A stretch of 64,000 nucleotides of DNA from a virus (IMGVR_UViG_3300023174_000056:96001-160000); one strand, 5' to 3'. Counted from the stretch's first letter, positions 10,714 through 61,235 are shown. The notes: generated from the sequence alone by a model not told the origin. A program made the numbers and translations.

Positions 10714-13700
10714 TTATTGTGTTTTATAGCTTACTATTAATACATTCTCGTTTTGTGTTCCTCTAAAACCTTTTACACCAACACGGTCTAAAACGCTTGG
10801 AACCTTATAAAATCTAGCGTCAGTGTATTGATCTGCTTGATCGCCTAATTCATATCTTATATCAATTTCTTCAAAAATTTTGTCTGGGTTCGTAAATATA
10901 TCTGTCACTTCCCCATCAGATTCGGCTCTTATTGTTAACCAAGCACCTGGTTCTAGTTTTCCTTTAGAATTTTTAAAATAATCAATTTTACTAAAATCCC
11001 CAACATTTGCCAATTGTGACTGTGGCATTGTTGGAACTAAATATAGATAAACTAATGGATCGCCCTTTTTAAACTTAGTACCAAGGAATGGGGCTGTTAT
11101 ATTTCCGTCTTTTTCAAAAGTAAGATATATTGCATTTTCAAATTGTTGTTTAAGCAAACCAAGCATTGATGGAGTGTAACCAGACGAATCTTTTGTTTCG
11201 TCCGCAATTTGTCCGTACTCTGGGACGCCCGTGAAGCTTAAAAAGTTATTTAACTTTACATTCCTTGTTATAGCGGTATTGAGTACTGGTACAAGATATG
11301 GTTTTGAAGGCTCTACTGCATAAAATGTAATACTTGGCTTTTCTACTATTGCCACAATATCAATTGGAGTAGTCTGGTCTACAACTGCACCCTTTGAATG
11401 TGAATAAATAAAATGCTGATTATGTACGGGCACATTACCATAAGTTGGCGAAGTCAAAAATGCCTTATCATTTACATATGGTCTAAGGAAGCATAGATAA
11501 TTGCCGTTTTTTTCATCGTTTGAAAATCTCGTATATACAGGATCTTTTAATATATAAACGCCTTTATGTTTTTTAAAAGAAATTTTCTCAACTTCTCTAA
11601 CAGTTTCGTACATTAATTTAAATTTGCTGGTTTTCCTTAGATTGATAGTAGAAAATTCTGAATTTGCTGGTAAAAACAGCGGACTTTCACCAGAAGAAAA
11701 ATTTTCTTGATTAGAATAATAGCTTAATTTTGCTTCAAAAATTGTCTTAACACTTTTATTTGTCTCATCCCCTATGGTAGTTGAATCGTTTAGAATTCCT
11801 GCTGTTAGCTTATAAAGCACACCAGAATCAATAAAATATAAAAGCTCTGATAAAATAGCTTCTGCTCTGTCTTCTCCATAAAGATTTTTTGTTTTTTCGT
11901 CAATAGCGTTTTGAATAAAAAATTCATCAAATAAGGTGCTTGTAGATATATCGTTAAGCTGTAAAATAGTTAAATCTGATGCTATTTTTTTAAGAGCAGC
12001 AACACCTTTTGTAGAAATAAGGTTCTCTTCTTTTAAGCTGTATAAATAAGCTTCAAATTCTTTTTTACCGTACAAGCTTAATAAGAAATCAACAGAAGCG
12101 TATGCAGAGTATTTAACTTCGTTTGACTGCTTAACGGCTTCTAATTCGTTTATTTTTTGTAGATCAAGCTTATAAAGTTGTTTATTGAAATCTTTGTAAG
12201 TAATATATTTTAAAAATTGATTAAATTTTGTATTCTGTATCTCTGAATCGAGGACACTAGAAAGCCCGTAACTCTTACTTTGGTTTTTATTAAAAAAATC
12301 AAGTCCAAAGCAATTTGTAGTTGTGGCATCTGCGATAAAATTATTGAAAACAACTTCTGTTTTAATTGTTTGTATGAAATTTGGTACAGAATTTAGAGAT
12401 GGGCTAGAAGAATTATATGATGCTGGTAATTCTGATAAACCATTATTTGGATTTATGCTTTTAGTGGATAAAATTTTATTTATATTTTCAAATAATTGTT
12501 CATAAAGTTTTAAAAATCCTTCTACACCTTCTGGATTACCTGTTTCTGGCTTTATTCCATAATAAATACTTGAGGCTAAACGTTCAATATGCTCTTGTAA
12601 ATCTATTTTATCTTTTTTAATTTTATCAGTATCTAGAAAAATTACATAAGTTCTTAAAAATCCAAGAATATTTTTAACTGCTTCTTCGCTAGAAAATATA
12701 TCTTGCAAGCCACTAGAAAAACGGTTTTCCGAAGCTATGTAAAAGCCCTCTTTTAAGTTTGCTAGATTTGTTTCTTTAAAAATATATTCACTTGCAACAT
12801 CAATATGTGGGTTTTCATCATATACATTTTCTGCTTGCAAATAAGGAATTGATGATATTTTTTGGTAAGCTTTTAAATAATTGTAACTTTTTAATAAGTA
12901 ATCATTTATTTTTTGTAAAATAGCATATGCAGGATCTACTATTTCTATTGAAAATTTGTACTTATATCTACCATTTGTAATATTTTTGAATGTTGTATCC
13001 ATTCCACTGAAAAATACAAGCTCGGGAGCATTATTTATAATGCTTGCGTGCAATTGATTATAATTTACTTCTTTTGCCGTAACTCCCTCTAAAATTACTT
13101 TTTCTTCATAATCGCCATATTTGTTTGGAACTTCATTTATTCTAGATAATTTTGCATTTAGGATAAAGCTAGAATTTGTTATGCTTGTATTATTAACAGT
13201 TGCTAGTTCGGCTAACTTACCAATTATTGAATTTTCTTTTAAAAATCTTTTTATATCAAAAAAGAATCCAAATTTAACAACATTTGAAACTTCTTGGTCT
13301 GCAATTTCATAGTATTCTACTTCTTTGCTTTTCTTACGTCTCTTTAATAATAAATTTTCATTGTCGTATGCAGCAAAAAAATCAGAAAAATAATCTAAAT
13401 TTGCTTTTTTTGTTTCTGATAAATTTGAATCATAAATATATTCTGGGATGTTTGTTAAAATTGTTGTATCGACTACGGTATTTGCAATGTCTCTTTCAAT
13501 TTTTCTATTGTTTATAATTCTTTGTATTTCTGGGGTGCCTACAAAATACTCCTCTGTGCCCAAAGAATTATTTAGATCTAAACCGTATTCTTTACAAATT
13601 TCTAAAGAATCGTAATACGATAAAAATACTACAGACAAATGTAAAATATCTTCAATTTTTTCTTTGTAGATATTATTTTCAAATTCAATTACAAATTTAG

Positions 13701-51451: not shown

Positions 51452-52762
51452 TTATAATACTTGTGCTGCCAAAGTTGCAACTGCTGAACGCTCGCCCTTT
51501 TGCAAGGAAATATGACCAGCTAATTCAAATGGTTTAAACTTTTCTACTGCGTAAGTTAGGCCGTTGTTTGTTGCGTCTAGAAATGCACTATCAATTTGTT
51601 CAATATCGCCAGTCAATACAATTTTTGTGTCTTCACCGACTCTTGTAATTATAGTTTTTAACTCATGCATGGTTAAATTTTGCGCTTCGTCTATGATTAT
51701 AAATGCTTTTGAGATTGAACGTCCACGGATAAATGTAAGAGCCTCAATTTCAATTGTGCCTTGCTCTTGTAGCATCTTCATATGCTCTTTATCATCACCC
51801 ATTAAAAATTCTAGATTGTCTTGGATTGGAGCAATCCAAGGCATCATTTTTTCTTCTAGAGTGCCAGGAAGAAAACCAATATCTCTACCCATCGGTTGGA
51901 CTGGGCGGCTTACGATTAGTTTCTTATAGGTGCCGTCGTCAAGAATTTGCTTCAGACCAGCCGCCAATGCAATGAGAGTTTTCCCACATCCAGCCTTGCC
52001 AACTAGTGAAACGATCTTAACATCTTGATCCATAAGCAAATCTAGAGCAAATTGCTGTTCTTTATTTTTGGCTCTTACGTCCCAAATGCCTTCTTTATAA
52101 TCACGAACTTTTGATAATGGATGATTATAGTTCTTAAACTTAGCAAGTGCAGTCTTTTTTTCATTTGCATTTGAAACAAGCATTACATACTGATTTGGAA
52201 ATAATTTAATGTCCTTTTCTTCAAGAAACATTTTTTCTCCACCATAAAAACGATCTATCATCGCATCATCAACTAAATGATGGATAAAACCAGTATAAAC
52301 TTCTTCTGCTTTTTCAACAATTTGGTTGGTTGTATAGTCTTCCGCTTTGATACCAAGAGCATCCGCCTTGACACGAACATTAATATCTTGTGATACAAGA
52401 ATTACTGTATCTTGAAGATTATTAGAAGCACAATTTAATACAGTAGCAAGGATTTGATTATCTGGGTCTTCCATGCTCATATCTGCTGGTAGCATGGCAT
52501 TACCATAACCACGAACAGTCAACACTCCCTTGCGGCCACCAAGTTTTGCACCTTCGACCAAGGAACCCTTTTCTCTTAGTTTATCTAGTTCACGGATAAC
52601 TTGTCGAGCGTTCGCTCCTACTCCGTCTTGACGTTTTTTATGCTTATCAATCTCCTCTAAGACTTTTAGAGGAATCACAAGATCGTTTGCTTTAAAAGCA
52701 TAAAGTGCGTTAAAATCGCTAAGTAGAACATTTGTATCTAGAACATAGATTTTTTTTGACAT
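51452..52762 (-). CDS. phoH: PIN-domain PhoH-family ATPase (PhoH2/YlaK type)
   Basis: VLDTNVLL PIN motif, GKAGCGKT Walker A, GFLPG..EEK, RGRS, IDEAQN, GDIEQID. Confidence 0.92.
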   Translation of the reverse strand: MSKKIYVLDTNVLLSDFNALYAFKANDLVIPLKVLEEIDKHKKRQDGVGANARQVIRELDKLREKGSLVEGAKLGGRKGVLTVRGYGNAMLPADMSMEDPDNQILATVLNCASNNLQDTVILVSQDINVRVKADALGIKAEDYTTNQIVEKAEEVYTGFIHHLVDDAMIDRFYGGEKMFLEEKDIKLFPNQYVMLVSNANEKKTALAKFKNYNHPLSKVRDYKEGIWDVRAKNKEQQFALDLLMDQDVKIVSLVGKAGCGKTLIALAAGLKQILDDGTYKKLIVSRPVQPMGRDIGFLPGTLEEKMMPWIAPIQDNLEFLMGDDKEHMKMLQEQGTIEIEALTFIRGRSISKAFIIIDEAQNLTMHELKTIITRVGEDTKIVLTGDIEQIDSAFLDATNNGLTYAVEKFKPFELAGHISLQKGERSAVATLAAQVL

Positions 52763-54042
52763 TAAGTTGTGTCCCCAATATGATTTACGTAATCATATAC
52801 TGTAATAGATTTTAACTTATTTTTTAATTCTTGTGAAACATTTAAGTCATCTATTTTTAGCCCTTGCCGTTCCATGCCCTTAATTAGTTCGTAGCCATCT
52901 TTAATATTTTCTTTCTTTAAGAGAATTTGATAAGCTTCAGCTAGAAGCCCCGTGTTGGAAAGATCCCTATCAACTGCCGTCTGGTTAATGGAAAGCGTTT
53001 CTAGACCCGCTAGCGTCGATTTATAGGCCACTACTGAATGTCCCAGAGCGACACCAATGTTACGCATTACTGTTGAGTCTGTAAGGTCACGTTGCATTCT
53101 TGAAATTTGTAACTTATCTGACATAAAAGACAGCAAACAGTTTGCCAATTCAAGATTGCCTTCTGCATTCTCAAAATGAATTGGATTCACTTTTTGAGGC
53201 ATTGTAGAAGAACCAACTTCATCAGCAGTTACAGTTTGTTTGAAATAACCATAAGAATTATACATCCAGATATCACGGCAAAGATCAATTAAAATGTTAT
53301 TGATCATGCGAATACGATCAAAATATTCGCTGATACATTTGTTATTTGCAACTTGTGTTGTGTATGATTCTGGGTCTATATCGTATTTACGAAGAAACAG
53401 ATCGGCAAAATTTAGCCAATCATGGTCTGGATAAGCAATATAGTGTGCTGAGAGATTACCTACTGCTCCACCGAACTTAGCCTCAAACGGATGATCCTTT
53501 GTTTCCGACCAGACTTCTTGTAAGCGAGACATATAGACATACATCTCTTTATCAAAGAGAGTTGGAACTGCAAGTTGTCCATGTGTTCTAGCGGGGAACA
53601 CACAAGCATTTTTCTCTGCAAATGTGACAATAGAATTAATTAAATCAGTCATATAGTACGACATTTCGCTTTGATTAAAGCGATCAAGCATCGTACTGGT
53701 TGCAAGACTGTTAATGTCTTGGCTGGTCAAGCCAAAATGAATCATGTGATCGTGTGGGATATTAAAATGTTTGAATCTTTCACGAAGATAATATTCAATC
53801 GCTTTAATATCGTGACGAGTTTTTTCTTCAATAACTTTAATATGTACTGGTTGGATATCATCCCAAATATGTGTGATCCAAAAACGGTCTGTGTCGTTTA
53901 GCGGTAGCTTTAATTCTTCACAAAGAGCAACAAAATAATCAAGTTCAATACGTGCTTTTAATTTAAGCATCGCATCTTCGCTAAAGTAATCATTCAGTTC
54001 ACGAACTTTTTGGAAGTACCGATCATCAAGCGGAGATAACAT
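52762..54042 (-). CDS. purB: Adenylosuccinate lyase
   Basis: SPLD.RY, T.HD.KA.EY, HFGLTSQDIN, RTHGQ.A.PT, KFGGAVGN, GSSTMPQKVNPI.FENAEGN, SR.QRDLTDST..RN.G. Confidence 0.93.
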   Translation of the reverse strand: MLSPLDDRYFQKVRELNDYFSEDAMLKLKARIELDYFVALCEELKLPLNDTDRFWITHIWDDIQPVHIKVIEEKTRHDIKAIEYYLRERFKHFNIPHDHMIHFGLTSQDINSLATSTMLDRFNQSEMSYYMTDLINSIVTFAEKNACVFPARTHGQLAVPTLFDKEMYVYMSRLQEVWSETKDHPFEAKFGGAVGNLSAHYIAYPDHDWLNFADLFLRKYDIDPESYTTQVANNKCISEYFDRIRMINNILIDLCRDIWMYNSYGYFKQTVTADEVGSSTMPQKVNPIHFENAEGNLELANCLLSFMSDKLQISRMQRDLTDSTVMRNIGVALGHSVVAYKSTLAGLETLSINQTAVDRDLSNTGLLAEAYQILLKKENIKDGYELIKGMERQGLKIDDLNVSQELKNKLKSITVYDYVNHIGDTT

Positions 54043-54938: not shown

Positions 54939-55493
54939 CTAAAAATTTAAATTATTATTGGTATATTTAGTGACAAAATCGTTCATTATAATGCTACCAG
55001 CAACGGCAGCATTTAAAGAGCGTACAGAGCCATACTGCTGAATAAACACAAATCTATCACAAATTTCTATCGCTTCTTGTGTAAGTCCGACGCCTTCTTC
55101 GCCAAGAAGAAAAAGGACAGGCTTAGTATATTCAATCCTATCCAAACGGATAGCACCAGCAATAGTATTTTCAACACCAACAATTTCGTATTTTTCCTTC
55201 AACTCTAAAAGTTGTTCGTGTTTTTTTAGATGTATTACATCCGTATAATGGTGTGTGCCAACTGTGCCTCTACGGTCATAGTGTTTATTGCCAATGTAAT
55301 AAACTTCTTTCGCATTAAAACCATTTGCTGATCTTATCACAGATGATAAATTAAAATCACCAAGAAGATTCTCCATCGCAACTGCGTAAGGAAAGGCTTT
55401 AGACTGGAGATCTTTTTTAATTAATTCTGTTGTCCACTTAGTCAAACGATCATACTTGTACTTGTCTGAAATGTTACGGTTGTCTGTGTCCAT
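54939..55493 (-). CDS. SpoU/TrmH-family RNA 2'-O-ribose methyltransferase
   Basis: N....N..S..RSA..F, LGEEGVGL, I.QYG.VRSLN.AVA.SI (SPOUT motifs 1-3). Confidence 0.88.
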   Translation of the reverse strand: MDTDNRNISDKYKYDRLTKWTTELIKKDLQSKAFPYAVAMENLLGDFNLSSVIRSANGFNAKEVYYIGNKHYDRRGTVGTHHYTDVIHLKKHEQLLELKEKYEIVGVENTIAGAIRLDRIEYTKPVLFLLGEEGVGLTQEAIEICDRFVFIQQYGSVRSLNAAVAGSIIMNDFVTKYTNNNLNF

Positions 55494-55508
55494 GCACCTA
55501 CTATATCA

Positions 55509-55793
55509 TCACAAATATCTGGTGTCAACAGAGCCTTGCGGGCCTTCTTCAAAAAAAGGTTTCAAACAATTAAATAATTCTTCTTTAGACGAATCTCCAA
55601 CGCATAACCAGCCAGCAGCAAACGTCTCTGAATACAATTCCCACAGTTCAGCACATTGTTCTGCCGTGGCATAAAATCCTCTATCAAATAGGGCGTCTTG
55701 AATTTTGCTTATATCACTTTTAAATTGTAAATGAAAATTTTCTTTTTTAACTTTAATTGTCCTCAGTGCCATGAGCTTTTTCATTCCTTTCAA
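55509..55793 (-). CDS. Hypothetical protein
   Basis: 94-aa ORF with an LW..YS....AGWL motif. The start may be the ATG at 55772. Confidence 0.55.
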   Translation of the reverse strand: MKGMKKLMALRTIKVKKENFHLQFKSDISKIQDALFDRGFYATAEQCAELWELYSETFAAGWLCVGDSSKEELFNCLKPFFEEGPQGSVDTRYL

Positions 55794-56013
55794 TTTGAGC
55801 TTTGTAAAATTTTATAGAAGATTCAATTGCTTCGTTCATAAATTTATTAAATCTTTTTTGCGACCAACGCTTTAAATTATGATAGTCTTTAAAGCCTTGT
55901 TTAAATTCATCATCAGCTTCAAAAACTATTTGAGCGGACCCGTCTGGGTTATCAATTATTTCTTTTACTTTTAGTAATCCTCCAAATAATTTAGTTTGGT
56001 TTGCTGTTTCCAT
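55753..56013 (-). CDS. Hypothetical protein
   Basis: 86-aa ORF with an NPDGSA motif seen in small phage proteins. Confidence 0.55.
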   Translation of the reverse strand: METANQTKLFGGLLKVKEIIDNPDGSAQIVFEADDEFKQGFKDYHNLKRWSQKRFNKFMNEAIESSIKFYKAQIERNEKAHGTEDN

Positions 56014-56176
56014 TTTTTACAACTTTTCCTATTATTTCTATCAATACTTCACCAATTTTATTAGCTGCTTCAATATCTTCAGCGGACCAATCACACTCAT
56101 TACATAAGAAAAAAGCTTCGTCTACAATTTTTCTTTCGTAGACGAAGCCTTGTTTTTGGCAGCTTTCACATTTCAT
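55991..56176 (-). CDS. Small zinc-finger-like protein
   Basis: CESC...CNEC; AGGT RBS. Confidence 0.5.
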   Translation of the reverse strand: MKCESCQKQGFVYERKIVDEAFFLCNECDWSAEDIEAANKIGEVLIEIIGKVVKNGNSKPN

Positions 56177-56243
56177 TTTGCTACCTATTTTGTTGGTGGA
56201 GAATACTTTATTTGGTGCGAATCAAGTAGTCTACACTATTTAG

Positions 56244-56321
56244 TGGTGGAGCTTCAGGGTACCGCCCCCTGCTGGTTCCTGCTTGCAAAGCAGGCGATCA
56301 CACTATGCAATCCCAAGCCCC
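56244..56321 (-). tRNA. tRNA-Ala(UGC), atypical D/T loops, encoded CCA
   Basis: Acceptor GGGGCTT/AAGCTCC with G3:U70, discriminator A, CCA. Anticodon arm CCTGC-TTTGCAA-GCAGG. T-arm CAGGG-GGCGGTA-CCCTG. Confidence 0.8.
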
Positions 56322-56335
56322 ACTAAGGAGTATAT

Positions 56336-56890
56336 ATGAAAACTATAACACAACCATGCCAGAATTGTAAAGAACTTTTTGAAGCACAATTGCGTGAAGT
56401 AAATAGAGGCAATGCAAAATATTGTTCAAAAAAATGTAGTGCCGAAGGTGTAAAAAATAAACTTTTAGAACGAAACGCAAAAATAAATATTCCAAATACA
56501 GAATGTTCTTACTGCAAAAAAATATTTTATAAAAATAATTCTCAAAAGCAAAATTCTAAAAAAAACTTAAATTTTTGTTGTAGGGAGCACAAAGATCTTG
56601 CACAAAGAATAGAATTTGGTTTAAAAGATTTACAGCCATTACATTATGGATCTGGCGATTCGCATTACAGAGAGATCGCATTCCGTAGCAAAGAACGTAA
56701 ATGTGAACGTTGTGAATACAATAAACACCCAGAAGTCCTAGAAGTTCATCATAAAGACAGAAATAGAGAAAATAATACTATTGAAAATTTATTAGTTCTT
56801 TGTCCAACTTGCCACATGGAAGAACATTTTTTAAATAAAGATGGTAAGTGGAAAACAAAAACGGCAACCCCCGAAGAGATTACCGTCTAA
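56336..56890 (+). CDS. HNH endonuclease with zinc-binding repeats (the only convincing plus-strand gene)
   Basis: AAGGAG RBS; two CxxC..(Y/F)C...C units; CERC...LEVHHKD.N..NN...NL.VLCPTCH...H. Confidence 0.88.
   Translation: MKTITQPCQNCKELFEAQLREVNRGNAKYCSKKCSAEGVKNKLLERNAKINIPNTECSYCKKIFYKNNSQKQNSKKNLNFCCREHKDLAQRIEFGLKDLQPLHYGSGDSHYREIAFRSKERKCERCEYNKHPEVLEVHHKDRNRENNTIENLLVLCPTCHMEEHFLNKDGKWKTKTATPEEITV
56342..56371 (-). promoter_or_regulatory. Putative sigma70 promoter for tRNA-Ala, inside the 5' end of the HNH gene
   Basis: TTTACA-18 bp-TATAGT with an extended -10 TG. Confidence 0.55.
56852..56886 (-). terminator. Intrinsic terminator downstream of tRNA-Gly
   Basis: ACGGTAATCTC-TTCG-GGGGTTGCCGT (11-bp stem with G:U pairs, C(UUCG)G loop) followed by TTTTGTTTT. 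Confidence 0.8.
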
Positions 56891-56893
56891 GTT

Positions 56894-56967
56894 TGGAGCA
56901 GCTAGTCGGATTCGAACCGACGAAACGAACTTGGAAGGATCGTGTGTTACCACTACACCATAGCTGC
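56894..56967 (-). tRNA. tRNA-Gly(UCC), encoded CCA
   Basis: GCAGCTA/TAGCTGC acceptor, U73, D-arm GTGT-AGTGGTA-ACAC, anticodon loop CTTCCAA, T-loop TTCGAAT. Confidence 0.95.
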
Positions 56968-57014
56968 AATAAATAGGTTGTTTTTAACGAGAACAACCAA
57001 AAACTCTTTTTATT

Positions 57015-57209
57015 TTATTTTACTGGTGAAACTGTTGGTGCTGGTGTTACCGATTGTAGTACAGCTCCTGCGTCTACAGTTTCTGTGGTTGTAGTAGTTT
57101 GTGTCACTGCATCAGTAATTTGAGGATTTACTGGTGTAGGAACCGCTTCTACTTTTTTACCACAAGCTGTGGTAGTAATTAGGGCTACGACTGCAAATAG
57201 TACCTTCAT
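57015..57209 (-). CDS. Small Thr/Pro-rich lipoprotein
   Basis: MK plus hydrophobic stretch plus lipobox-like TTAC-G; GGAGA RBS. Confidence 0.6.
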   Translation of the reverse strand: MKVLFAVVALITTTACGKKVEAVPTPVNPQITDAVTQTTTTTETVDAGAVLQSVTPAPTVSPVK

Positions 57210-57218
57210 TTTATTCTC

Positions 57219-57830
57219 CTATTCAATAATTTTGTCTACAAGACCATACTTGAGACAAGTTTTAGCATCAAAATATATATCACGTTTCAAGATATCTTTT
57301 AAGGTGTTTTTTGGAATTTTTGTATATTGACCATAAATTTCATAAATTTTATCCATAAAAACATTGCAATTTTGCATATCATCTTTCATGTCTTCAAATT
57401 TACCCCACATACCACCTGATAATTGGTGAATTAGCATAAAAGAATTTTTTGTGATACTTCTCTTTGGAGCCACAACACTTATAATAGTTCCAGCGCTGGC
57501 AGCACTGCCTTCAACGATAGAATGCACTGGGGCGTTGCTATTACGAATTACATCAACAGCAGCAAAACAATCAAGTAGAGAACCGCCTGGACTATTGATG
57601 TAAAGTTTAATGTCTGGCGGTGTGGGCCATTCAAAATGATTTTGAACAAAAATCAATTCTTTGCTTACACTACGCAATTGTTTATTAAGGTTTAAAATTG
57701 ATTTCTTAGTAACAGAAGAGTAAAAATAGATTGAATTATCTACTGTTTCAATTTCATTTAAATCTTCATCATCTTCGTCTGCGGACGGTTTTGTGGCTAA
57801 ATAAAAAGCATTTTTTGGTAATTTAGTCAT
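57219..57830 (-). CDS. clpP: ClpP-like serine protease
   Basis: I.LYINSPGGS, G.AASAG (catalytic Ser), MLIHQ (His), RD.YFDA...LKYGLVD.I. Confidence 0.85.
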   Translation of the reverse strand: MTKLPKNAFYLATKPSADEDDEDLNEIETVDNSIYFYSSVTKKSILNLNKQLRSVSKELIFVQNHFEWPTPPDIKLYINSPGGSLLDCFAAVDVIRNSNAPVHSIVEGSAASAGTIISVVAPKRSITKNSFMLIHQLSGGMWGKFEDMKDDMQNCNVFMDKIYEIYGQYTKIPKNTLKDILKRDIYFDAKTCLKYGLVDKIIE

Positions 57831-57844
57831 GGCAAGGCTCCAAT

Positions 57845-58132
57845 CTATGCCTTCATCTTACCCTTCTTATTTTTGCTTGTCAAGAGCTTTTCTTCAATTT
57901 CCTCAAGAGCAGCTTTTAATGATGGATCTACACGGCTTTTTACAACATACTGTTGACCACCTACACCTGATCGCTTAATTTTAACTTGATAAGTACCAGT
58001 CTTGTCTTGCGCTTTTACAGACTTCCGAAACGTATCCGCTTCTTCAAACGAAGCAAAATAACGTTCATTTTTCCAAGGCTCACCTTGAACTTGCTTTGTT
58101 GTCTCTTCCATTTTCCTACCCTCCTTCGTCAT
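57845..58132 (-). CDS. Hypothetical protein
   Basis: 95-aa ORF. A GGAGGG RBS supports the alternative start MEETT (58112). Confidence 0.55.
   Translation of the reverse strand: MTKEGRKMEETTKQVQGEPWKNERYFASFEEADTFRKSVKAQDKTGTYQVKIKRSGVGGQQYVVKSRVDPSLKAALEEIEEKLLTSKNKKGKMKA
57855..57883 (-). promoter_or_regulatory. sigma70 promoter for clpP
   Basis: TTGACA-17 bp-TAAGAT within the end of the upstream ORF. Confidence 0.7.
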
Positions 58133-58151
58133 TCCAGACGGCTATAAGAAC

Positions 58152-58180
58152 ACTCTATCAGACCTAAAATTTCTTGTAAA
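58152..58180 (-). promoter_or_regulatory. Putative sigma70 promoter
   Basis: TTTACA-17 bp-TAGAGT with an extended -10 TG. Confidence 0.55.
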
Positions 58181-58518
58181 GAACAAAATAACAGGCGTGT
58201 TATTACACTAAAGCGGAATCTCATTGCATCGCAGAATTCACCTTTTTATCGGTTACTCCACGTCTTCTGGATCTCCACGCCGATACGTTTCTCCTATTCC
58301 CTAACCACCCCGACCTATGATAGATTGCGCCTTACCTAATACGAGGATCTTATGGAGATCGCTCAAATATTACACTTAGTTATTTAAGGGTTTCGTATAA
58401 TATTATTCGGGCTTTTAGCATAGACGCCTTTTCACAAGATTTCTATCTGCACTAGTGGATTTTGCCGCACTCTTTAAAAGATGGCTACCTTTAAGCCAAC
58501 TTCCCGATTATTTTGTTC
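58181..58518 (-). ncRNA. 338-nt structured RNA whose ends form a 23S rRNA H42-H44 (L11-binding, GTPase-associated centre) mimic around a 260-nt insert
   Basis: 11-bp terminal helix GAACAAAATAA/TTATTTTGTTC. 5' part ATCGGGAAGTTGGCTTAAAGGTAGCCATCTTTTAAAGAGT aligns to E. coli 23S 1051-1090. 3' part GTGTAATAACACGCCTGT aligns to 1091-1108. Compensatory changes are present and the RNA has its own promoter. Confidence 0.8.
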
Positions 58519-58527
58519 GTAGATACA

Positions 58528-58570
58528 AGTATGCCACAGAGACTCGGTGTTGTCAAGTCTTCTGTGGCAT
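58528..58570 (-). promoter_or_regulatory. sigma70 promoter embedded in an inverted repeat (drives the rRNA-mimic RNA)
   Basis: TTGACA-17 bp-CATACT with TGn, inside ATGCCACAGAAGAC...GTCTCTGTGGCAT. Confidence 0.7.
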
Positions 58571-58575
58571 TTAGT

Positions 58576-58865
58576 TGGTGGAGGATTTGGGTATCGAACC
58601 CAAGTCTTACAGTCTTTTGTACAAAGTCATTCACAGGATTAGTAGAGTCGTCTACACGTATTACATTTTATTACAGTCTATTACAATTTGCAACTTTCTG
58701 TTTCTAGGCAGTTGCCGCCCAAGAATTACGCTGCTAGAGCGTAGGATTCAAACTCAACGTCTTCGTTGGCTTTTATTGTTTTGTAACATTTATTAGAGTC
58801 TGTTGTGTTACGCAGACTTCCCGCACTTTATATTTCTCTACCGTAATCGAATCCAGTTATCCCCC
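58576..58865 (-). ncRNA. ssrA: tmRNA, 290 nt, tag peptide ANEDVEFESYALAA
   Basis: GGGGGAT/ATCCTCC-A-CCA acceptor with G3:U. 5' GGATTCGA motif. T-arm TTGGG-TTCGATA-CCCAA. PK1 (AGTCTG/CAGACT with GTAACA/TGTTAC). Tag ORF at 58770-58726 ending YALAA*. Confidence 0.95.
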
Positions 58866-58876
58866 TTAGAAGCCTA

Positions 58877-58924
58877 AATAAAAAGATACCACAGGTGCAA
58901 GCTCTTGTCAAGACACCTGTGGTA
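58877..58924 (-). promoter_or_regulatory. Overlapping intrinsic terminator (endolysin gene) and sigma70 promoter (tmRNA)
   Basis: TACCACAGGTG...CACCTGTGGTA hairpin followed by TCTTTTTATTT. Contains TTGACA-17 bp-TATCTT with TGn. Confidence 0.7.
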
Positions 58925-58947: not shown

Positions 58948-59526
58948 TTAAACGTTTCCTTCTAAAATCTTAAGTGCTTTTTCTGAATAAGCTACACGTT
59001 GATCGTGATGTAGTTTTCCAGTTCCATTAACTCTTAATGTAATTGTATCTAGATCCCATTTATCAGCAGCTTCATCTAATTTACGATCTTTGAAGTATTG
59101 GCAAGCAATCTTGACTGAAACTTCTGGAGTGCAAGCTAATTCTGGTTTGTTGGCTAAATCTAAGCCCAGCTTCTTGCCGTATAGCTCATAGTTAGCACGT
59201 CCAGTTAACTGGAGAACGCCACGACCAATAAACTTAGGACCGTCACCAGCTTGGGTGTTACCTAAATTTTTACGACCTTCGTAAAGCGTTCCTGTCGGTT
59301 CAGCAGCGTCTTTTGGGTCTTTCTTGTTGTATTTAGATGGTAGTTCTTTATCGTAGCGCAATTCGCCACTTTCAACACCAATTTGTCCTAATAGTGCTGC
59401 AATACGTTTTGGAGTATTGAATCCCATTTCTTCACAGGCTTTTCCAAAAATTGGACCATAGGCTTTGATCTTGTCTGCTGGTGCTTTTGGAAAAATTGCT
59501 TTTAGTTTTTCTTCAGTTAATATCAT
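58948..59526 (-). CDS. Glycoside hydrolase family 19 endolysin
   Basis: RIAA.LGQ..VESG.L.Y..E, YEGR..LGNTQ.GDG.KF.GRG.LQLTGR.NY, IT.R.NG. Confidence 0.9.
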   Translation of the reverse strand: MILTEEKLKAIFPKAPADKIKAYGPIFGKACEEMGFNTPKRIAALLGQIGVESGELRYDKELPSKYNKKDPKDAAEPTGTLYEGRKNLGNTQAGDGPKFIGRGVLQLTGRANYELYGKKLGLDLANKPELACTPEVSVKIACQYFKDRKLDEAADKWDLDTITLRVNGTGKLHHDQRVAYSEKALKILEGNV

Positions 59527-59866
59527 CTCCCTTCTCCTTATAGTAGGTTAAAATGTCGAGCTTATTTAAATAGTTTTTAAATTGTTTTCCGTTCATTCCT
59601 AAAATACGCATAGCACCTTTTTTTGTTCCAGCAATACCCAATGCAGCTTTAAACATGGCATCACGAACAAATTTTGGAGTTGATTTCCAGATAGGGAGTC
59701 CAAGAACAGCTATTGGATTTTTATGCAATGCTAATTCTAATTTTAAAGCAATCATTTCTTCCATAGTTAAATTAGATAGCAATGTCTCAAAATACTCGTT
59801 ACTCTTCTTTTTCTCTCTTAGAATTTTTATCATTGAGTAACGATTTACTATTAATTTCTTGGTCAT
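59513..59866 (-). CDS. Putative Fis-type helix-turn-helix DNA-binding protein
   Basis: C-terminal AAL...GTKKGAMRILGM....F resembles the Fis AL...GN...AA..LG HTH. Confidence 0.45.
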   Translation of the reverse strand: MTKKLIVNRYSMIKILREKKKSNEYFETLLSNLTMEEMIALKLELALHKNPIAVLGLPIWKSTPKFVRDAMFKAALGIAGTKKGAMRILGMNGKQFKNYLNKLDILTYYKEKGDDIN

Positions 59867-60392: not shown

Positions 60393-61235
60393 TTATACCG
60401 GCTCCTCTTCTGGGGTTTCTGGTGCTTGACCAGCGCCTGTTAGTTCAGATTCTTTTCTGCTTTTCTCTTCTTCATATTCTGGGGTTGTTGGTTCTGGAAC
60501 TGAAGTCTGCAACTCGTCTTCGAATTTATCAAAATATAATTTTAAATTTGTAATTAAATATTTATAAAATAAATCACGATCAGTCTCGTTAGCTAAAATT
60601 GAGTAAGCTTCACGGATTTGTTTTTCAACACGCTTAAAAGATTGTAGAGCTATATTTCTGCCAGTTTCATCTTCACCCTCAATACTAACAAAGGCGTCTT
60701 CTGGGGCTGCTTCTTTTGGTTTTTCTTGATCTTTTTCCTTCTTATCAGATTTTAGAGGTATAAAGGATGGATCTGCTTCTGGCGAATTTGGATCCTTGAT
60801 GTCAATCTTAACTTTTTCTTCTAGATCTGAATCTTCAGAAACATTTTTTTGTGACCCAGCTGCTGGATCGCCTTTTGTTGTTTCTGGGTTTCCAACTGTT
60901 CCACCAGCCTTAAACATTACTGATACTGGCACTAGAAGGTTCTGCACGCTTTTAATAATATGTGCTCTAAACGATTTACGTTGTTCAATATCGGTTCCAA
61001 GTTTTTTATAGAAAGACTTAAGAATTGGAACAATTGTTTCAAGAAGATCTGCTAAAACGTTAATACCAGTTGATTCGTGTGTAACAATATCTTCTGCTTC
61101 ACGAAGAATTTTACGAATATTTTTTCTAAGTCTATATTCATTAATTCTTTCTTGAATTAAATTTGTTTTTTGTGTTTTTTTAATATCTCTAAGAGTTGCT
61201 TGAATATATTCTCTTAATAGTTTTAATTCACTCAT
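60393..61235 (-). CDS. Hypothetical protein, possibly an internal head/core protein
   Basis: LLREYIQ / LRK.IR.ILREAE repeats, HESTGINVL.DLL, D.TGRN.A, YL..N..LYFDKFE. Confidence 0.5.
   Translation of the reverse strand: MSELKLLREYIQATLRDIKKTQKTNLIQERINEYRLRKNIRKILREAEDIVTHESTGINVLADLLETIVPILKSFYKKLGTDIEQRKSFRAHIIKSVQNLLVPVSVMFKAGGTVGNPETTKGDPAAGSQKNVSEDSDLEEKVKIDIKDPNSPEADPSFIPLKSDKKEKDQEKPKEAAPEDAFVSIEGEDETGRNIALQSFKRVEKQIREAYSILANETDRDLFYKYLITNLKLYFDKFEDELQTSVPEPTTPEYEEEKSRKESELTGAGQAPETPEEEPV

Follow-up and report, generated by a model that had tools for sequence, protein, structure and literature searches.

A tRNA-centered island of a T4-like phage that carries a tmRNA, a ClpP-like peptidase and an RNA resembling the ribosomal GTPase-associated center

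Introduction

Why would a phage gather, within 4 kb, a ribosome-rescue RNA, a protease, an RNA resembling part of 23S ribosomal RNA (rRNA), two tRNAs and an RNA methyltransferase? This question is raised by the interval 54939-58924 of a 64,000-nt stretch of viral DNA (the window), which comprises positions 96001-160000 of a 168,144-bp phage record in IMG/VR (IMGVR_UViG_3300023174_000056) that is estimated to be 92% complete. An earlier interpretation made without database searches (the sequence-only reading) had proposed that six elements, namely a transfer-messenger RNA (tmRNA), a mimic of the rRNA GTPase-associated center (GAC), clpP, tRNA-Gly, tRNA-Ala and a SpoU-family methyltransferase gene, form a coordinated system for keeping translation running. 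All six do lie within the interval, and all are on the minus strand. The interval also holds a plus-strand HNH endonuclease gene, a small open reading frame (ORF) with a lipoprotein-like signal and several ORFs without known function. Coordinates below refer to the window unless they are given as genome positions, and features of the interval are on the minus strand unless stated otherwise.

The same record encodes a T4 gp21-type prohead protease (genome 80339-80761) and nine further tRNA genes (genome 339-2638), which point to a large T4-like phage from uncultured freshwater samples. The label of jumbo phage, which had been attached to this DNA, does not suit it: the usual lower line for jumbo phages is 200 kb, and this T4-like genome measures 168 kb.

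Here we argue, with a confidence somewhat better than even, that the interval is a hypervariable, tRNA-centered accessory island composed of separately promoted modules, each using host partners, rather than one obligate machine. On our best reading of the data, the modules owe their proximity to common ancestry and to insertion at a single hot spot.

Results

Promoter-like sites with an extended -10 element precede five units of the island: the tmRNA (58883-58911; TTGACA, 17 nt, extended -10), the GAC-mimic RNA (58528-58556), ORF95 together with clpP (58152-58180), a non-canonical tRNA-Ala (56342-56371) and the SpoU gene (55500-55528). Most of these sites are kept at orthologous places in relatives. 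Specifically, the tmRNA site has an orthologue in L002, and in all three of the closest relatives (L001 through L003) the core of the mimic-RNA site is invariant and the ORF95-clpP site is kept. The proposal that most elements have a sigma-70 promoter of their own agrees with this pattern. Because each unit has a conserved promoter-like site, the units can be transcribed separately.

The three closest relatives are syntenic with the window at 70-83% DNA identity. A wider comparison is provided by a ClpP profile search of viral contigs, which yielded 250 relatives, 80 of whose loci were examined. The backbone order across these loci is p280, p117, an optional segment of endolysin, tmRNA and mimic RNA, and then ORF95, ClpP and tRNAs. 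A tRNA lies no more than 2 kb from ClpP in 51 of the 80 loci. The tmRNA is present in the fetched flank of 23 loci, at 0.3-7.6 kb from ClpP, SpoU is present in 10, and the mimic RNA is present in L001 through L003 only. The place of the tmRNA is fixed just after p117, and its distance to ClpP varies. In L003, the mimic RNA, ClpP, tRNA and SpoU are kept and only the tmRNA has been lost. When ten large relatives without a tmRNA near ClpP were searched in full, six proved to have a tmRNA 10-71 kb away and four had none detected; the record holding L032 (G001) has ClpP without a tmRNA. The other phage lineages that carry the mimic RNA (see below) have no homologue of any island protein, be it ClpP, ORF95 or SpoU.

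These comparisons divide the original proposal. Synteny in the closest relatives and the recurring order of tmRNA, ORF95, ClpP and tRNAs favor a coordinated system, but the parts vary independently, as seen in L003 and in the presence of the mimic RNA in 3 and of SpoU in 10 of the 80 loci. The sequence-only reading had stated that unlinked genes, or genes independently present in relatives, would speak against it. This is what we find in part, because the tmRNA, the mimic RNA and SpoU are separately present, absent or distant in relatives; the closest relatives are syntenic, whereas 6 of the 10 large ones have the tmRNA 10-71 kb away. Across relatives, the genes do not behave as a co-inherited, co-located, single operon-like system.

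The element at 58181-58518 is, on comparative evidence, a structured RNA of 338 nt whose ends rebuild helices 42 to 44 (H42-H44) of 23S rRNA. When its full 338 nt were aligned directly to the complete 23S rRNA of E. coli K-12 (rrlH), the best local match was H43 (nt 1055-1088), with 29 of 34 positions identical and a score of 43, compared with 21.8 +/- 2.1 in shuffles (shuffle maximum 33). The Rfam bacterial large-subunit (LSU) rRNA model matches 58448-58514 at model positions 1086-1152 (25.2 bits, E 6e-6 in a small search). A closing helix joins the 5' copy of H43 (58469-58508) to a 3' H44-like hairpin (58197-58208), with an insert of about 260 nt between them, in which no other rRNA match rises above shuffles. 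A blastn search of the RNA against the E. coli genomes returned nothing at E 10 in a 28-Gb collection.

Relatives L001 through L003 retain the promoter, the 12-bp closing helix and the distal hairpin, and they display two compensatory pairs in H43 and two more in the inner domain. A pattern scan of viral contigs identified four more lineages, represented by L142 (with near-identical copies), L143, L144 and L148, the last of which has the RNA embedded in its tRNA set. All five phage lineages follow one plan, in which a closing helix encloses, in this order, the H43 copy, a junction common to all of them, an insert of 95-260 nt and a hairpin of 12 nt. In an alignment of nine sequences, 95.8% of cells in the three shared helices are paired, compared with 79.9 +/- 1.8% in shuffles and 40-57% in slid controls. 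Thirteen pairs are changed on both sides, a number reached by none of 500 shuffles, and the covariation includes the closing helix and H43. Because the helices covary when judged against both shuffled and slid controls, we regard the RNA as real and under selection. The closing helix, the H43 and H44-like parts, the variable insert and the tRNA neighbors together mark it as a member of a GAC-mimic family. Thus, the rRNA mimic named in the sequence-only reading stands on its H43 match to E. coli 23S rRNA, its LSU model match and its covarying helices. Folding of single sequences is uninformative in this case (z +0.66 for the 5' part). No Rfam 15 family matches the RNA at its gathering score, a metagenome scan for it gave the same three lineages only, and a literature search for a phage GAC or rRNA mimic found no description.

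Which segment stands in for H44? The Rfam LSU alignment favors a contiguous H44 beside H43 (58448-58468), a candidate that we reject as its pairing is not kept in L002. The distal hairpin, which is common to all lineages, is favored as the H44 part from these alignments.

The inserts of all phage mimic-RNA lineages contain an A-rich motif of the CYGAKAAAA type (58240-58275 in the window; also in L143, L144 and L148). In the window, this motif caps a hairpin flanked by AGUA and GAA that is S-turn-like. A motif of the same type lies 3' of the GAC copy in cyanobacteria.

These cyanobacterial copies emerged when the mimic pattern was scanned against one genome per prokaryote species, which gave 49 matches, nearly all in filamentous cyanobacteria (L093 through L141). 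The copies are not in rRNA genes, and their flanks are a different conserved sequence. The RNA is about 300 nt long (for example, L108:1606-1937). One copy scores 41.4 bits with the Rfam LSU model over H43-H44, and 56 nt of a cyanobacterial copy align to E. coli 1059-1114 with a score of 47, compared with 19.3 +/- 2.0 in shuffles. In all 26 aligned cyanobacterial copies, 13 nt identical to the sarcin-ricin loop (E. coli 2653-2665) are present in a hairpin 70 nt upstream. Forty of the 49 copies reside within dense same-strand tRNA arrays of 8-33 genes, and eight or nine Nostoc-type copies lie outside arrays. The arrays in question are the long tRNA arrays of Santamaria-Gomez et al. (PMC8421152), who reported them to be horizontally moving and induced by translational stress, and to aid survival under ribosome-targeting stress. 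Neither that paper nor the TrcR paper mentions the RNA element. The 49 cyanobacterial copies, the location of 40 of them within tRNA arrays and their sarcin-ricin-loop motif are new here.

Nostoc/Anabaena-type copies have a 276-280-aa ORF without a Pfam match downstream in the loci examined, at about 170-280 nt in L093, L104 and L126 and about 1.2 kb in L111. In L093 (5792-7371), a ThiF/E1-like gene comes after this ORF; the phage has no ThiF. The window protein p280 was considered as a relative of this ORF and proved to be unrelated (E 0.14).

The one-piece tmRNA gene of 290 nt (58576-58865) is recognized by both ARAGORN and Rfam (RF00023, 73.9 bits versus a gathering score of 47), and its orthologues in L001 and L002 score 104-108 bits. 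As read from the Rfam alignment, its acceptor contains the G3.U70 pair and a 3' CCA. ARAGORN reports an internal frame closed by a stop that encodes a tag of 14 residues, ANEDVEFESYALAA, whose YALAA ending bears out the ALAA-ending tag described before. A YALAA-type ending is the classical ClpX/ClpA degron of ssrA tags. The reported lack of smpB and clpX in the window extends to the entire 168-kb genome, which has no match to the SmpB family PF01668, no ClpX/ClpA unfoldase (AAA_2) and no SspB. Since the phage encodes no SmpB, its tmRNA would need that of the host.

About 2.3% of phage genomes have a complete tmRNA, a gene that is common in T4-like marine myophages without defining them; in one of these phages, Melnitz, the tmRNA is two-piece and a glutamine riboswitch comes after it (PMC9004378). 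A DNA search of cultured phages with our locus returned the tRNA-like end of the tmRNA as its sole match. In Streptomyces phage Karimac, the tmRNA lies within a tRNA cluster and no ClpP is annotated nearby.

The clpP gene (57219-57830) encodes a ClpP-family serine peptidase of 203 aa, as the sequence-only reading had it, with a Pfam CLP_protease match (PF00574, S14; 5e-30, 105 bits), a ClpP fold and an intact triad. In an alignment with E. coli ClpP, the protein shows 26% identity and the three triad columns (Ser, His and Asp) do not vary. Its AlphaFold model has a predicted local distance difference test (pLDDT) score of 80, and the top Foldseek matches are all solved ClpPs (E 1e-14, template-modeling score 0.7-0.8). 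The N-terminus departs from this likeness: the first 24 residues are acidic and disordered in the model, residues 1-30 do not align with ClpP N-termini, sequence matches in PDB begin at about residue 31-37, and the conserved N-terminal axial loop region is absent by both alignment and model. All NCBIfam ClpP models remain far under their cut-off (best 89.8 bits versus 249). A ClpP-related head-maturation domain in NCBIfam reaches 97.1 against a cut-off of 120, and PHROG head-maturation families match as well. A role as the head protease is ruled out by the gp21-type protease noted above, and because this T4-type enzyme is encoded elsewhere, we view the ClpP-like gene as accessory. No homologue above 35% identity was found in cultured phages. 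A second ClpP paralogue resides outside the window at genome 30621-31250; it is 24% identical to the island protein, has an Asn aligned with the catalytic Asp and is followed by an unannotated 419-aa ORF.

Immediately upstream of clpP is ORF95 (57845-58132), a small basic protein whose likely start, at 58111, stands behind a strong Shine-Dalgarno sequence. ORF95 is a conserved neighbor of ClpP, lying directly upstream of it in 13 of the 80 loci at identities down to 38%. Its AlphaFold2 model has a pLDDT of 74. The protein has no Pfam, PHROG or NCBIfam family and no fold match in PDB below E 0.2.

The two tRNAs that had been claimed differ in standing. tRNA-Gly(UCC) (56894-56967) is called by the standard tools ARAGORN and Rfam (RF00005, 65.2 bits) and has canonical D- and T-loops. 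A tRNA-Ala is present as well but is non-canonical: the 78-nt gene at 56244-56321 receives no default ARAGORN or Rfam call and is recovered at a relaxed threshold only. Its D-loop lacks GG, its T-loop reads GGCGGUA, its T-arm matches the consensus of the alphaproteobacterial tmRNA model, and G3.U70 is present. Comparison of four phages nevertheless argues for a genuine tRNA, in that all 84 cells of the cloverleaf are paired, both partners have changed in 10 of the 21 pairs, and G3.U70 and the UGC anticodon are invariant. Judged by this covariation, the gene is a selected tRNA-Ala(UGC). A rod fold obtained from single-sequence folding is contradicted by the covariation.

The history of this gene can be read from its relatives. 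L001 and L002 have a canonical tRNA-Ala(UGC) 8-9 nt after tRNA-Gly. In the window and in L003, this gene has been lost except for its final 8 nt (56194-56201), where identity to L001 and L002 resumes. The cassette that replaces it (56194-56890; L003:10990-11633) is composed of a terminator-like hairpin 3' of tRNA-Gly, which forms its left end (56859-56888; also in L003), a plus-strand gene for an HNH endonuclease of 184 aa (56336-56890; Pfam HNH_3/HNH and PHROG HNH families), the promoter-like site and the 78-nt tRNA-Ala-like gene. The HNH gene is absent from L001 and L002 and present in L003, L016 and L017. Its pairing with the odd tRNA-Ala is repeated in L016 (11723-12338) and, at a different site, in L017 (8880-9488). 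We infer that the HNH protein is a homing endonuclease directed at the canonical phage tRNA-Ala gene, and that the odd tRNA-Ala traveling with it is a substitute it cannot cut. L003 has a quite different tRNA-Gly(UCC) sequence (10909-10983) at the position of window 56894-56967, which may reflect co-conversion next to the HNH cassette.

The SpoU/TrmH gene of the sequence-only reading (54939-55493) is confirmed by a Pfam match (PF00588, 1.8e-24, 86.9 bits versus 29.7) and encodes a TrmH-like 2'-O-methyltransferase of 184 aa. Its nearest relatives, both in NCBIfam and among solved structures (E 1e-12), are TrmH Gm18 tRNA methylases. The TrmH equivalog cut-off is not reached (63 bits versus 227).

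Other features of the interval are a 64-aa ORF (57015-57209) with a lipoprotein-like signal and no family match, which is not translation-related, and three small ORFs (61, 86 and 94 aa; 55509-56176) that have no assigned function and are syntenic in close relatives. Immediately upstream of the tmRNA promoter is an endolysin gene of the glycoside hydrolase 19 type (58948-59526); this gene and one for an endonuclease VII-like protein are also interspersed in the region. Beyond the endolysin gene lie p117 (59513-59866) and p280 (60393-61235), conserved proteins without a family match. In nearly all relatives that have a tmRNA in the region, it lies directly downstream of p117. Genes for a PIN-PhoH fusion protein and adenylosuccinate lyase (51452-54042) lie a short way downstream of the island and share its strand.

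Discussion

How might such an island work? Under the accessory-island reading, host sigma-70 polymerase would transcribe the units early in infection and host tRNA-processing enzymes would release the RNAs. The tmRNA would be charged by host alanyl-tRNA synthetase by way of G3.U70 and, together with host SmpB, would free ribosomes stalled on broken mRNAs, adding a YALAA-ending tag that host ClpXP or ClpAP could degrade. The ClpP-like peptidase and its conserved small partner ORF95 would form a separate proteolytic module. Away from the ribosome, the GAC-mimic RNA would present a copy of the site where uL11 and factors dock, and would bind uL11 or a different ligand of this site. Decoding would be supplemented by the tRNAs, and the TrmH-like enzyme would 2'-O-methylate tRNA, probably at G18. 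The HNH cassette would be selfish DNA that destroyed the canonical tRNA-Ala and brought its own substitute. This dependence on host partners is suggested because the genome lacks SmpB, an AAA_2 unfoldase and a gene for uL11.

Several observations count against so loose an arrangement. The stretch from the tmRNA to tRNA-Gly could be co-transcribed by read-through, as no intrinsic terminator is predicted within it. When the two are within 10 kb of each other, the tmRNA is upstream of ClpP in 23 of 23 cases and on the same strand in 18, and the gap is 0.3-0.5 kb in several lineages, with a minimum of 331 nt. This order exceeds that of a random dump and could reflect functional pairing. If so, then might the phage run a dedicated tag-and-degrade pathway, in which its tmRNA tags stalled products and its ClpP degrades them, with ORF95 as the adaptor and a hijacked host unfoldase? 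In infected cells, such a pathway would make amino acids available again and clear ribosomes. It is lent some plausibility by the constant order and by the conserved ORF95-ClpP pair, and further by the ClpX/ClpA-type degron at the end of the tag and by the intact triad and fold of the peptidase. It is weakened because the phage encodes neither unfoldase nor SmpB, because the loop region by which ClpP docks ClpX or ClpA is replaced by an acidic disordered segment, and because some relatives have the two genes unlinked. In addition, the NCBIfam ClpP score is low (90 bits versus 249), ORF95 has no recognizable adaptor fold, the tmRNA is constant in position relative to p117 and not to ClpP, ClpP occurs without tmRNA in L003 and in G001, and the two genes are 10-71 kb apart in six relatives. 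We consider a dedicated pathway distinctly improbable. The opposite extreme is that there is no functional theme at all, and that mobile and accessory DNA accumulates in a hyperplastic region beside the tRNA genes, where ClpP and SpoU came to lie with the RNAs by historical accident. The HNH cassette, the lipoprotein-like ORF, the endolysin, the endonuclease VII-like gene and the interspersed ORFs without known function are what one would expect from such a region, as are the content between p117 and ClpP, which varies from 0.3 to 7.6 kb, and the independent presence of parts in relatives. However, four units (the tmRNA, the mimic RNA, the tRNAs and the tRNA methylase) are translation-related, the association of mimic RNA with tRNA clusters recurs in unrelated elements, and ClpP maintains its proximity to a tRNA in most of the loci (51 of 80, as noted above), making pure accident quite unlikely.

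The modules could instead share a purpose in defense, such that each neutralizes a host system for shutting down translation. In this case, cleaved tRNAs would be made good by the spare ones and by the odd tRNA-Ala, and 2'-O-methylation would protect tRNAs from nucleases. The GAC mimic would serve as a decoy that draws off a toxin, an antibiotic or a stringent factor recognizing this site of the ribosome, and the tmRNA would clear ribosomes from cut mRNAs. The sarcin-ricin loop is a known target of rRNA-cleaving toxins, and the cyanobacterial copies carry its exact 13-nt motif. Furthermore, the mimic RNA repeatedly occurs among the supernumerary tRNAs of mobile elements, as it does in phage L148 and for 40 of its 49 cyanobacterial copies; stress directed at the ribosome induces the cyanobacterial arrays, which promote survival (PMC8421152). 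This support is circumstantial throughout, however. The phage copy has no exact sarcin-ricin loop, just the hairpin with its AGUA and GAA flanks; the methylase is similar to housekeeping TrmH; and the modules vary independently. We therefore rate a counter-defense kit as unlikely. A bolder proposal, to which we give little credence, is that the island works as one genuine unit and insulates the translation of the phage. Its mimic RNA would soak up uL11, or a factor or toxin that recognizes the GTPase center of the ribosome, for example blunting RelA activation or a translation-targeting defense; the tmRNA would mark stalled products, which the ORF95/ClpP-like pair would degrade in a phage-specific manner; and the stress-induced tRNA arrays of cyanobacteria would use the same RNA decoy.

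The usual view of phage tRNA islands is that they patch codon usage. The accessory island favored here gathers several further means of acting on the ribosome. It combines ribosome rescue with tRNA methylation, with an RNA that copies the factor-docking site and with a ClpP-like protease that has a conserved partner. Its HNH cassette would be a selfish element that compensates, by way of a cut-proof tRNA-Ala, for the loss of the gene it destroys. Of these pieces, the mimic RNA reaches furthest, extending to several phage lineages and to the long tRNA arrays of cyanobacteria, and these arrays offer a cultivable setting for asking what a free copy of the GTPase center does.

Comparison with known systems

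The tRNA region of phage T4 brings together tRNA genes, non-tRNA small stable RNAs and a free-standing homing endonuclease. In the window, by comparison, the endonuclease is of the HNH type and comes with its own non-canonical tRNA-Ala, which replaces the displaced gene.

Among phage tmRNAs, those of Karimac and its relatives, Melnitz and the pelagimyophages (PMC9004378) resemble that of the window in being full-length, in encoding an ALAA-type tag and in lying among phage tRNA genes. The Karimac- and Melnitz-type tmRNAs also stand behind an early-type promoter, as the one in the window does, and are common but not universal in their phage group. SmpB is encoded neither by the window phage nor in the stretch around the Karimac tmRNA. 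The window tmRNA differs in being one-piece and only 290 nt long, and in having the GAC-mimic RNA and the ClpP-like gene directly after it.

With bacterial trans-translation (ssrA, smpB, sspB, clpX and clpP), the island shares a G3.U70 tmRNA, a tag ending in YALAA and a peptidase with the ClpP fold and triad. Unlike the bacterial system, the phage has no SmpB, ClpX/ClpA or SspB, its ClpP has no N-terminal loop region, and its tmRNA and ClpP genes are not co-inherited in relatives. The ClpP fold and triad are held in common with the ClpP of phage G (PMC12484599) and with ClpP-related head-maturation proteases. Phage G encodes its ClpP with ClpX (PMC12484599), whereas the island ClpP has no ClpX beside it; and unlike phages that use a ClpP relative for head maturation, the phage described here has a separate gp21-type protease.

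The cyanobacterial tRNA arrays, like the island, are horizontally moving, supernumerary tRNA sets, although no tmRNA, ClpP or SpoU was seen in the cyanobacterial loci. Their RNA has a contiguous H42-H44 copy and an exact sarcin-ricin-loop motif, whereas the phage RNA is split by its insert.

A further point of reference is the GAC of 23S rRNA itself (H42-H44, E. coli 1051-1108). The phage mimic matches 29 of 34 positions of H43, substitutes its closing helix for H42 while retaining the G.R pair at 1056/1103, has an H44-like hairpin loop, and preserves its helices through compensatory changes. Within the 34 aligned nucleotides of H43, six positions depart from the E. coli sequence. Unlike the GAC, the phage RNA holds 260 nt between its H43 and H44 parts, and it is a free-standing molecule of 338 nt with its own promoter, outside any rRNA gene.

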